From a virus (lineage: Duplodnaviria; Heunggongvirae; Uroviricota; Caudoviricetes), in the IMG/VR virus record IMGVR_UViG_2690316210_000013: a DNA stretch of 10,411 nt. One strand, written 5' to 3'. The first letter of the stretch is position 1. Every line of letters begins with the position of its first letter. Position numbers: made by a program. Shown here piece after piece: positions 1-3,000 of the stretch.

Positions 1-3000
1 ATTATCTGAACATAAAACACTATCAATAAGTTGGAGTCATTACCCGATATCCTGCTGAGAACATAAACACCCACGGATCGAGGCGTACGCTATCATGTTG
101 CTGTGCACCGCCCAGTTTATAATTGGCGATGGTATCGATATCCATGTACCACACTGGTAGGTTTCAAAAAACACAATAACCAATTGTATTTGAAGCAAAA
201 AACAAGACTTTGAGATGTTTTTTTGTACCTTTTTTTTATGTTTTTAACTGTCTGATTTTATTGAAATCTTTTTTAGTTTTGCAGAAGGAATTTTTTACTT
301 GATTGTAACTTTTTCGTTTTTTTGGGGCTAATTGACGCGCAATGCTGGGCGGGGAGCGCACAGCCAAAAAAACCGAAATTGACCGCTAATTACTGCCAAT
401 CATCATCGCTCTGATTGAGCGTAAATCATTCAGGTTATTCAGTTCTTCCTTCTGCTCTCGCTGACGTCAATAAATCCCATCATTGCGATCAACCTCATCC
501 TTAACCATTGATGCGAGCAGTTCTTCCAGTTTCTGCGCTGATAGCTTTACCTGGTGATCTTCAGCATCTTCCCGGGCTATTGTGGTTCGCGCAGTGGCTG
601 ATTTTGCTGACATCACCACAGGGGGCAGACGGACCATTGAACCATGGCCTCCGGAACAAATAAGGGCAAAAATAACAACCACTATCGAAAGCTCACAAAC
701 TAACCGCAGCACGTTCCTGCATACGACGTGTCTGCGGCATAATCCCAATGATTACTCCCTGACAGGATTTGCAGGCCACTCAATATCAGGTGCAGTTGAT
801 GTATCAACACGATTCAACAATACCCGATATTTATTCCATGCCTCCAGCAACGATCTTTCTTCCTCCGTTGCGATTTCCAGATCTACAGCATCCTGCAGTG
901 GCGCAATATACTCACTGAATTCCTGGATGTAGAACTGTGTGGTGACGGTCTTCCAGCCATTCGGCTCCTGCTGTATCGAAGCATACCAGGCTATTTCAAT
1001 ATCGCTATGCTGCGGCAGCATTTAACCCCTTGTAATTCATCGCCATAATTGATTTAATTCACAAATAAAACTATAATATGGTGAAATTAATGAAAAAAAA
1101 CACAGATGATGGGGCTAAAATTTACACACCACTTACCCTAAAGCTTTATGACTGGTGGGTTTTGGGAGTATCAAATCGGCTTGCATGGGGATGTCCTACA
1201 AAGGAACACCTTCTTCCACACTTTCTGGAACAATATCTTTCGGCGTCAGTGTTATATCCGCTGAAAGCGCCTTACCATTCACCTTACGGGCAGAAGGTAC
1301 CCGACCATTCGCATTATCATTAGCTGCTTTCACTGCTTTCGGTGTCGCGGCAAGCGTTTCAGATGCGCTGTTGGTTGCACTACTGAGCTGGACAATTCCT
1401 TTTTGTGCTGTCGTAGCGTCCTGAGCAGTATATTTCCCGTTAGCAAGGTCATAGGCTGCCTTTACCGACTTTGGCGTTGCCGCCAGCATTTCAGATGTGC
1501 TGTTGGTCGCGTTGCTAAGCTGAACTATCCCTTTCTGTGCTGTCGTTGCATCCTGTGCGGTGTATTTCCCGTTAGCCAGCTCATACGCGGCCTTAACGGC
1601 TTTTGGCGTTGCCGCCAGTGACTCGGAAGTGCTGTTAGTCGCACTGCTGAGCTGTACTATCCCCTTTTTCGTCGTGCTCGCATCCTCAAGCGCCACGGCG
1701 GATGCAATATCCTCTGCCCGTTTTGCCGCTGTCTCAGCGCGCGTTGCTGCAGATTCCGCCGTACTTTTGCTCTGAGCTGCTGCCGTCGCACTACCAGCAG
1801 CCTCTGTCGCCTTCGTGGATGCCGTCGTGGCGCTGCCCTTCGCTGCTGACGCCTGTCTGGTCGCCTCATCTTTTGAAGCAGACGCCGATGATGCCGATGA
1901 CGCCGCCGAACTGGCGGACGATGCGGCAGCCGTTTTTGAGGATTCTGCGCTGGTTTCCGACGCTTTCGCGTTCGTCTCGGATGTCTTCGCTGCGGAAGCA
2001 GACCTCGCTGCTGCGCTGGCCTGTACAGCGGCTTCGCCAGCCTTCGTTGTGGCTGTTGAAGCAGACGATGCAGCACTTTCTGCCGATTTTCCGGCGGCGG
2101 TGGCACTGGCTGAGGCCTGCCCGGCACTTGTTGACGCGGCACTGGCAGATAATGCAGCCGCTGTTTTTGAGTCTGCCGCAGCTGAGGCGCTCTGTCCCGC
2201 TGCCGTTTCAGAAGACCTGGCGTTCGTCTCGGACGTTTTTGCCGCCTTCGCAGAATTTGCTGCCGCCGTTGCCGAGGAAGCTGCGCTGCTGGCGCTCGAG
2301 GCTGCGTTCGTTTCTGATGATTTTGCCGCCTCTTTTGAAGCCGACGCATCCCGTGCTGAAGTGGCTGCTGATTGTTGTGACGCTGCGGCATTCGTTTCTG
2401 ACGTTTTCGCGGCACTGGCGCTGGTAGCTGCCGCGCTTTTTGATGACTCTGCAGCAGCAGCACTTTTTGCTGCTTCACGGGCCTTTGTCGATGCCGTTCC
2501 TGCGCTGGAAGACGCTGACTGAGCCGACGACGCGGCCTGTCCGGCTGACGTGCTGGCGGCAACGCCAAAGNTATCCCTTTCTGTGCTGTCGTTGCATCCT
2601 GTGCGGTGTATTTCCCGTTAGCCAGGTCATACGCGGCCTTAACGGCTTTTGGTGTTGCCGCCAGTGACTCGGAAGTGCTGTTAGTCGCACTACTGAGCTG
2701 TACTATCCCCTTTTTCGTCGTGCTCGCATCCTCAAGCGCCACGGCGGATGCAATATCCTCTGCCCGTTTTGCCGCTGTCTCAGCGCGCGTTGCTGCAGAT
2801 TCCGCCGTACTTTTGCTCTGAGCTGCTGCCGTCGCACTACCAGCAGCCTCTGTCGCCTTCGTGGATGCCGTCGTGGCGCTGCCCTTCGCTGCTGACGCCT
2901 GTCTGGTCGCCTCATCTTTTGAAGCAGACGCCGATGATGCCGATGACGCCGCCGAACTGGCGGACGATGCGGCAGCCGTTTTTGAGGATTCTGCACGGGT

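Follow-up and report, generated by a model that had tools for sequence, protein, structure and literature searches.

The closest described counterparts of the locus reported here are the attachment sites of phage lambda, of e14 and phage 21, and of prophages known from ompW. In lambda, the P arm is AT-rich, lies on the tail (b-region) side of the core, opposite int, extends to about −152 and has two arm-type sites (P1 and P2), with an IHF consensus site just core-proximal to the distal repeat; the bound proteins besides Int are IHF (H1 and H2), Xis (X1–X2) and Fis. The integrase pattern comprises P'1–3 and P1, the arm-type word is C/AAGTCACTAT, the P' repeats are located ∼55–85 bp from the core, and Xis-type sites are present in one arm only. 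e14 and phage 21 integrate in icd and bear a diverged copy of the 3' end of their target, the target gene remaining intact. The host 3' end displaced by e14 remains at the distal junction as the pseudogene icdC; the replaced segment measures 165 bp, and TTATCAAAA occurs three times past the icd end carried by the phage, with a single further copy at 126 bp from the opposite junction. ompW is itself a known lambdoid prophage site, with an att duplication of 121 bp (PMC8112680), and the attP of ompW prophages was obtained by PCR from the circularised phage (PMC8112680); arm-type sites are not described by Nakamura et al. 2021, where the term 'arm-type' has 0 occurrences (PMC8112680).

The window studied here, i.e., the whole stretch of 10,411 nucleotides, carries an AT-rich block close to its first base. 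The original prediction treated positions 170–466 as one block that might mark a prophage-host junction, an attachment-site arm, the b-region equivalent or the regulatory region of a divergent cargo gene. The AT-richness was borne out, as the GC content of positions 170–330 is 25.5% (T, 47.8%) compared to 54.1% for the whole window; however, the region consists of three modules, an arm (157–286), a conserved element (303–391) and part of a pseudogene (386–466). We conclude, with a probability of about 0.86, that the AT-rich block proper is the phage-derived P arm at the attR of a lambda-like prophage whose integration site is the ompW 3' end. The arm reading is thus right for positions 157–286 but does not extend to the whole block, as the T-runs at 291–323 and both pairs of repeated heptamers fall in the unrelated conserved element. 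The coordinates of the features are given in Table 1.

Table 1. Features at the attR end of the window, with the basis of each assignment.
Feature	Position	Strand	Basis
IS1 terminal inverted repeat	1–44	−	100% match in more than 5000 plasmid records, under or beside IS1-family transposase annotations
Displaced host ompW 3' end (last ∼37 codons, pseudogene fragment; bacterial half of attR)	45–156	−	TW10590 99.8% identical
Common core GTGGTATCGATATCCATGTACCACACTG (A at 129 in the window)	129–156		attB/attP/attL/attR alignment
Phage P arm of attR/attP	157–286		130 bp, 25% GC; missing from empty attB
Conserved block TTT..G..G.TTTTT..TAC	209–228		Invariant positions in five-lineage alignment; between IHF site and core
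Candidate IHF site (H1-like) AATCAGACAGTTA	245–257	−	Fits WATCAR-N4-TTR
Candidate arm-type integrase-binding site (P1-like) GTTTTGCAGAA	276–286	+	Repeated in opposite arm, conserved
Lineage-specific linker, att arm to tail-module flank	287–302		Unalignable among arm lineages
Conserved ∼90-bp non-coding element, imperfect inverted repeat	303–391		Cross-phage conservation
Pseudogene, tail-fibre-assembly-like (DUF4376), C-terminal ∼90 codons	386–658	−	RefSeq pseudogene annotation in TW10590
A/T runs of at least 5 nt	166–171, 197–202, 218–224, 230–237, 241–245, 269–274, 291–296, 310–314, 317–323		

The window begins inside an IS1 element that interrupts the displaced ompW fragment within its final codons, and the genomes that carry the ompW prophage without the IS are homologous to the window from base 45 on. 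Positions 45–156 are colinear with K-12 ompW, and the annotation of TW10590 shows a partial OmpW with yciE-yciF-yciG-trpA as neighbours. In complete genomes, the gene order is trp-yciG-yciF-yciE, partial ompW, AT-rich block and tail genes, with xis, int and an intact ompW located ∼50 kb from the AT-rich block; in K-12, ompW-yciE is uninterrupted. A four-way alignment of K-12 attB, the attR of the window and of TW10590, the TW10590 attL and the L009 attP set the host/phage boundary at 156/157 and defined a 28-bp core common to attB, attP, attL and attR. The junction expected in the block is therefore present together with an attachment-site arm, but lies 14 bp to the left of the proposed start at 170. 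The comparison with a prophage-free strain that had been advised is part of this alignment, K-12 having an intact attB that lacks the arm. By contrast, the junction was to be sought upstream of the window, whereas it is already inside; such an extension is needless because host DNA (the ompW 3' remnant and the IS1 end) fills positions 1–156.

The phage contributes, at its int end, a diverged ompW 3' terminus of ∼112 bp; integration thereby rebuilds an intact ompW and displaces the original host 3' end to the tail end of the prophage. The chimeric OmpW remains full length, and positions 45–156 of the window correspond to the displaced host end. Outside the core, the phage-borne copy in the window lineage is only ∼82% identical, whereas that of the PPompW prophages of STEC O145:H28 equals the host sequence, which yields the 121-bp 'att'. 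Judging from the aligned sequences, the crossover must lie within 129–156. A 7-bp overlap CACACTG (150–156), with ATGTAC (144–149) and GTAGRT (157–162) as flanks, is possible. Core variants at 152/155 (CAGACCG and CAGACTG) are found in attP, attL and attR forms; as these combinations leave the exchange point unfixed, co-variation of the core with its target is only suggestive.

int and xis are located outside the window and were read from the isogenic prophages L003 and L009. Int aligns over its full length with lambda Int (E = 1e-55), possesses an N-terminal Pfam Arm-DNA-bind_1 domain (PF09003, E = 1.2e-21) and is 50% identical to e14 IntE over 375 aa (E = 2e-137). Xis, encoded beside int, belongs to the Pfam family Exc and is 38% identical to XisE. 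The phage thus shares with lambda a homologous full-length integrase including the arm-binding domain, as well as an excisionase of the Exc family. A PDB sequence search with Xis returned no match at E values up to 1, and the rules for lambda Xis sites are consequently not transferable. Besides this IntE-clade integrase, the ompW att displays the substitute 3' end and the displaced host end that characterize the e14/phage 21 type, although the replaced segment is shorter (112 bp), the target gene, the core and the arm-type word (TTATCAAAA in e14, GTTTTGCAGAG here) are different, and int is parted from att by three cargo genes in e14 but not in the ompW phage. As a further difference, the target lies inside a protein-coding gene, unlike that of lambda.

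Because the sequence is of low complexity, occurrences of the arm in the phage collection were retrieved by exact-pattern scans. In five diverged lineages, homology extends from the core to ∼286 and the flanks beyond are unrelated; this 130-bp arm forms a discrete module that stays linked to the core in all five whatever follows, the adjacent linker of the window being common only to the L031 and Br190 types. The core is invariant across these lineages, and conservation within the arm is organized in discrete blocks that end exactly at the arm-type repeat. attP is intact on a single L009 contig (exo-xis-int-ompW'-core-arm), and five other attP-type loci were found. The PPompW prophages share the integration site and the integrase/arm family, positions 157–286 being alignable at ∼80% identity, but past the arm they have a type III effector locus in place of the tail-fibre-assembly flank of the window. 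We asked whether the arm might be the decaying relic of a defective prophage, conserved only by recent common descent and idle today. Nearby lie pseudogenes or truncated genes (DUF4376, a tfa fragment and a methyltransferase), IS1 is 112 bp away, and the O145:H28 PPompW prophages have been classed as defective (PMC8112680). However, the five lineages differ at ∼20–25% of the arm positions and yet show no variation in the core, the IHF match and the arm-type word, which indicates selection in the phage lineage. In addition, the window arm is identical in hundreds of genomes and differs from that of the attP-type contig L034 by a single T in one T-run. We therefore regard a relic as rather unlikely, and relic status of the window copy would not change what the element is.

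Apart from the core, repeats of the arm-type word GTTTTGCAGAG are present in both arms, three in P' and one in P (276–286). The P' copies of the 11-mer are tandem direct repeats spaced by 13 and 11 bp (L003 positions 45531, 45544 and 45555), located in the interval bounded by the stop codons of int and of the phage-borne ompW, the first copy beginning 7 bp past the int stop codon. These four copies, all in the same orientation, are the only ones in ∼59 kb, a count matched by 0 of 500 shuffles, and the P arm has one clear copy, without a second or inverted one at up to 3 mismatches. Positions 276–284 are invariant in the five lineages, and in all attP-type loci long enough to include it, the P-arm copy is separated from the core end by 120 bp. 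The tandem motif occurs in the int-P'-ompW' context in 17/17 cases in IMG/VR. Wherever the sequence reaches the core its offset is constant at 130 bp, or 145 bp in L009; this 15-bp difference between lineages in the core-to-P' distance is awkward for a rigid intasome model.

This arrangement resembles that of lambda. The arm occupies the same side of the core, is likewise AT-rich and reaches ∼145 bp from the core centre, and its distal repeat is oriented as the three tandem repeats of the int-proximal arm, with a candidate IHF site just core-proximal to it. However, the arm-type word is different, the P arm has one recognisable copy instead of two, and the P' repeats are located ∼100–135 bp from the core, a longer distance that is due to the replacement copy of the ompW 3' end lodged between. 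e14 and the ompW phage have the same 3+1 layout, with a single same-orientation copy 120–130 bp from the opposite junction. The consensus WATCAR-N4-TTR has exactly one match per arm in the five lineages, at the same aligned position (0.03–0.04 expected by shuffling), and the candidate is a perfect WATCAANNNNTTR in 3 of the 5. The interval that separates the core from the P' repeats gave no IHF-consensus match, and hence none resembling lambda H'.

A competing explanation is that the excisionase, or a different factor, binds the GTTTTGCAGAG repeats, or that these are a feature related to the int 3'-UTR or terminator that recurs by chance once near the tail end. The start of the tandem copies 7 bp past the int stop codon and their 11–13-bp spacing are compatible with this idea, such spacing of tandem direct repeats being typical of winged-helix RDF filaments too. 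However, by analogy with lambda, sites of the Xis type should be confined to a single arm whereas the copies are split 3+1 over both, and three P' copies with a distal P copy in the same orientation reproduce the lambda Int pattern. Furthermore, the related e14 repeats this layout using another word, as if the word co-varied with the Int N-domain, and the repeats lack a hairpin followed by a T-run. We thus consider these non-integrase assignments very unlikely. From motif repetition, conservation, consensus and analogy, we infer the following assignments for the attR arm. The N-terminal arm-binding domain of Int would bind GTTTTGCAGAR at the P1-like site and at the three P' copies, IHF would bend the AT-rich DNA at 245–257, allowing arm-bound Int to reach the core, and the excisionase would bind the conserved T-rich stretch at ∼209–228 during excision. 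By its position, 209–228 is a candidate excisionase or second Int binding region: it lies 68–87 bp from the core centre, the distance at which the Xis sites of lambda are placed, and has no established repeat consensus.

An attR arm is an ordinary, well-understood kind of element, and current understanding of site-specific recombination is unchanged; as ompW was already known as a prophage site, only the anatomy of the arm appears to be a new detail. The AT-rich stretch becomes a mapped attR, with a boundary, a core, an arm limit and candidate Int and IHF sites, which lets annotators place the ends of ompW prophages to the base. It also refines the published 121-bp ompW 'att', most of which is a gene-repair cassette, the 28-bp core alone being obligatorily common. 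Finally, it provides integrases of the IntE-like clade with an arm-site word that can be put to the test, GTTTTGCAGAG in the ompW phage and TTATCAAAA in e14, which could help att-site prediction and integrase engineering.

With regard to composition, the 9 A/T runs per 170 bp represent the window-wide maximum (median 0), a mild excess over local dinucleotide composition (shuffle mean 6.2; 9 reached in 95 of 2000 shuffles). The run positions first proposed agree within 0–7 nt with the measured ones, except that the 'run' at 258 is TTTT only. T-tracts at every helical turn had also been proposed: AA/TT Fourier power does have its peak at 11 bp, although this peak is matched in 32 of 1000 shuffles and another is present at 12.5 bp, and helical phasing of the tracts is marginal. 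AT-richness and A/T tracts are what is expected of DNA wrapped into an intasome. AT-rich, A/T-tract DNA is also expected to attract H-NS, which could hold in addition to an att role. That the block is solely an H-NS-bound or curved acquired spacer, or a cargo promoter or UP region, is highly improbable: its 25% GC, many A/T tracts and weak 11-bp periodicity would suit this explanation, but there is no gene to regulate (its neighbours are the host ompW remnant and the 3' end of a pseudogene), no promoter-like site in 157–330, conservation in blocks stopping at the arm-type repeat and constant linkage to the core, and the longest run (T8, 230–237) is not kept in the four sister arm lineages. The readings as an UP element or as the regulatory region of a divergent cargo gene find no support, no intact gene being adjacent. 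A promoter and terminator scan of positions 1–1300 gave counts at shuffle level and nothing in the arm; the sole promoter match in the interval is a weak one (9/12, 379–406), antisense to the pseudogene.

The heptamers of the original prediction are present, AATTGAC at 330 and 377 and GCTAATT at 327 (not 326) and 385, and are pieces (327–336 and 377–391) of the decayed inverted repeat of the 303–391 element, outside the att arm. Two repeated 7-mers in 320–400 have a P value of ∼0.03 by shuffling, and their retention in the homologous elements of other phages indicates that they are not due to chance. The inverted repeat has its arms at 311–326 and 364–378 (outer TAATTGAC/GCTAATTA). Phages with other integration sites (SerU-LTIIb, phiSTEC1575-Stx2k, L038/L040 and others) retain the element at ∼80–85%; their left flanks are unrelated, and the element accompanies their tail-fibre-assembly genes. 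In its consensus fold, GCTAATTGACGCGCAATTCTGGGC pairs with GCCCAGAATTGACCGCTAATTA, and the DNA fold has a z-score of −2.3, but compensatory pairs number 0 and the window sequence interrupts the inner stem. An RNA structure on either strand was rejected, as the consensus hairpin has no compensatory pairs and several of its pairs are broken in the window. A search of Rfam at a permissive E-value returned no family in 1–700, the sole match being IS009 at 795–998. An intrinsic terminator at the 311–378 inverted repeat was rejected because, whichever strand is read, the T-run comes ahead of the hairpin and the A-run behind it. A DNA-invertase (hix/gix-like) crossover near 362–385 was also set aside, only AAACCGA agreeing by eye with the consensus, as were the prophage sRNAs (e14 C0293 and svsR), which sit on the int-proximal side. 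We give a small chance to the possibility that 303–391, which always occupies the convergence of int-sense and late tail-gene transcription next to the outer end of the att arm, is a functional RNA-level element, such as an RNase III/sib-like retroregulator of int, whose double-stranded stem would be parted from int upon integration, or an element that stabilises the late tail-fibre transcript at its 3' end. If so, it would be common to lambdoid phages with unrelated integrases.

The adjoining pseudogene bears on the proposed absence of ORFs of at least 60 aa, which is correct for 170–466 although 386–466 is the 3' end of this tail-fibre-assembly-like gene. It has an in-frame stop at 467–469 and a terminal TAG at 388–386, and matches residues 103–192 of the SerU phage stf2 with 62% identity (tblastn, E = 2e-33).

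A lambda-like prophage is inserted in ompW, and its right-hand junction forms the left end of the window; this agrees with one of the readings offered originally, that the AT-rich block (170-466) may mark the prophage-host junction. Window 45-1200 is matched by 468 complete E. coli genomes with identities up to 99.7%. The TW10590 annotation lists trpB-trpA-yciG-yciF-yciE, then an OmpW pseudogene with the N-terminus missing, the AT-rich block, a DUF4376 pseudogene, a tail-fibre-assembly fragment, a SAM methyltransferase, tfa and stfR; exo, xis and int lie ~50 kb beyond, directly followed by an intact ompW and then by yciC-yciB-yciA-tonB. 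In K-12 MG1655, yciE directly adjoins an uninterrupted ompW, i.e., the empty attB. Four forms were aligned: K-12 attB, attR (window and TW10590), TW10590 attL, and the intact attP of L009, a metagenomic viral contig bearing exo-xis-int-ompW'-core-arm in a single sequence. This alignment defined the common core and placed the first phage base at 157 (see the table). Among the matches listed, which are top-ranked complete E. coli genomes, none reaches left of base 45, and the IS1 junction was therefore not seen in that collection; as a guess, the window might come from a strain rich in IS1, such as Shigella.

Features at the attR end of the window
Feature	Position	Strand or orientation	Remarks
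IS1 terminal repeat	1-44		insertion two codons short of the displaced ompW fragment's end
Common core	129-156		28 bp; present in the attB, attP, attL and attR forms (alignment)
Invariant block	209-228		five-lineage comparison
IHF-consensus match WATCAR-N4-TTR (candidate site)	245-257	-	single match per arm at the same aligned position in five of five arms; 0.03-0.04 expected
Fourth repeat copy, GTTTTGCAGAA	276-286	same as the three tandem copies	exactly where inter-lineage homology stops
tfa-like DUF4376 protein, decayed C-terminal 90 residues	389-658	-	62% identity to SerU stf2; in-frame stop 467-469

The ompW 3' end adjoining int is the phage's own copy, with just 82% identity to the host fragment apart from the 28-bp core. 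Integration therefore swaps the last ~37 ompW codons for the phage copy, and the original end, now at the tail flank of the prophage, is window 45-156. Such replacement of the target-gene 3' end is the known design of e14 and phage 21 in icd (PMC6379469). The crossover must lie inside the core, where CACACTG (150-156), with ATGTAC and GTAGRT on either side, makes an attractive candidate for a 7-bp overlap with imperfect inverted core sites; the core variants do not fix the exchange point, as the combinations in which they occur leave its position ambiguous. CAGACCG or CAGACTG replaces CACACTG in the viral loci L033 (~5380-5420), L034, L027, L047 and L022. In L033, the phage half is fused to another OmpW-like gene (...AGMTVWYMDIDT), a joint that hints at a second target for integrases of this family. 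In the TW10590 attL (L003, 45570-45690), the phage-borne 3' end rewrites the last exposed OmpW segment from ANYKLGGAQQHD to AKYKSGVTTVKD, and L009 carries a longer variant (3090-3235), both loci being outside the window. Lysogeny therefore yields a chimeric OmpW, which could change a receptor surface. The intact attP-type order (int-P'-ompW'-core-P arm) was also observed inside bacterial genome contigs (isolate-genome-derived viral contigs L006, L007, L013 and L015). These may be tandem prophages, or they may correspond to what PMC8112680 calls 'attB-in-PP_3'. The sequences so named, ompW-like with 81% identity and located beside int, could simply represent the P' half of the ompW-phage attP.

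The AT-richness of the block is strong, with 25.5% GC at 170-330 versus 54% for the whole window. The recurring T or A runs held up in part: the nine A/T runs of at least 5 nt are the window maximum but represent a mild excess for the local composition (95 of 2000 shuffles equal it), and the proposed spacing of roughly one helical turn corresponds to a marginal 11-bp periodicity (reached by 32 of 1000 shuffles). By sequence comparison, the block is built of three modules. Scanning IMG/VR with exact patterns for the core-arm junction yielded 15 loci, and a later scan one more (L031); with the GenBank PPompW phage of O145:H28, these sort into five diverged arm lineages. The five can be aligned from the core as far as '...TCTTTTTTNGTTTTGCAG' (window ~286); past that point, their flanks are unrelated (effector locus, other ORFs, or the tail-module flank of the window). 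Window 157-286 is thus a separate module of 130 bp linked to the core. Matches to phages at other integration sites, e.g., SerU-LTIIb beside tRNA-Ser, cover window 303-466, which is part of the tail-fibre-assembly module.

The attP was reconstructed by combining the window with the int-proximal half from L003. The repeat GTTTTGCAGAG occurs there as three direct copies in tandem, with spacings of 13 and 11 bp, in the interval that separates the int stop codon from the phage-borne ompW stop; with the distal copy, just four occurrences exist in ~59 kb (prophage plus window), a count that no shuffle reached. In IMG/VR, all 17 occurrences of the tandem motif are in the int-P'-ompW' context. Wherever sequence reaches, the core follows 130 bp after the motif (145 bp in L009), and is itself followed by the phage arm (attP) or by a host OmpW-family gene (attL); except in L033, that gene is E. 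coli ompW. In every attP-type locus extending that far, the distance from the distal copy to the core end is 120 bp. Short A-runs near the core are also invariant among the five lineages; the T8 run (230-237) lacks such conservation.

The ompW-phage integrase aligns over its full length with lambda Int (E 1e-55) and has the lambda arm-binding domain PF09003 (E 1e-21); the neighbouring Xis belongs to Pfam Exc. The integrase is 50% identical to IntE of e14, and Xis 38% identical to XisE. In e14 (K-12), TTATCAAAA occurs three times, with spacings of 11 and 13 bp, 70 bp past the phage-supplied icd stop, and a fourth copy in the same orientation is found 126 bp from the e14/icdC junction: the 3+1 plan is the same, but the repeat word differs. 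A word varying with the integrase while the geometry holds is the behaviour that arm-type sites should display. The junction, the core, the limits of the arm, the layout of the repeats and the families of the proteins are established; for the mechanism, lambda offers a model: the Int N-domain would bind the distal site and the P' triplet, an IHF bend of the AT-rich DNA at the candidate site would let arm-bound Int bridge to the core, and Xis might load on the conserved T-rich stretch (~209-228) during excision. The use of ompW as a site by lambdoid prophages, with a '121-bp att', is already documented, and its attP has been recovered experimentally (PMC8112680); arm sites are not described in that study. 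The new detail of the present analysis appears to be the arm dissection and the finding that the obligatory shared sequence is just 28 bp; the attR arm itself is an ordinary case of a class that is thoroughly understood.

The repeated heptamers AATTGAC and GCTAATT were recovered within 1 bp of the positions first given, inside the element at 303-391, which forms an imperfect inverted repeat in sister phages (GCTAATTGACGCGCAATTCTGGGC paired with GCCCAGAATTGACCGCTAATTA). The words were seen as direct repeats because their AATT cores are self-complementary. It occurs with at least four unrelated left flanks. The element is not terminator-like, has no match in Rfam and displays no compensatory changes, and its inner stem is broken in the window. 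Speculatively, it could be an RNA stem, either sib-like or stabilising 3' ends, or a recombination linker at a module boundary.

Elsewhere in the window, an Rfam IS009 match (RF02111; 795-998, minus strand; 112.5 bits, E 8.5e-27, slightly below the gathering score of 117) sits within a tail-fibre-assembly gene fragment (Caudo_TAP), and a class I SAM-methyltransferase gene (1078-1232, plus strand) is cut off after ~50 codons compared to TW10590. Between tail genes I and J lies a ~450-bp AT-rich insert (8689-9139) that the TW10590 prophage, colinear elsewhere, lacks. On its minus strand, an ORF ends at 8724 and is followed by a GC hairpin and T-run. The lipoprotein-like product of this ORF (MNKTILFCTIIALTGC...) matches phrog_914 (unknown function; E 8e-33), with no hit in Pfam. 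The insert looks like a classic moron, and its product is possibly, as a guess, a Cor-like exclusion lipoprotein. A run of Ns (masked or unknown bases) occupies ~8547-8593 in the 5' part of the J tail-tip gene. The side-tail-fibre gene (1581-3950) contains ~1-kb internal duplications, as 1581-2369, 2626-3507 and 3639 onward all match one TW10590 segment.
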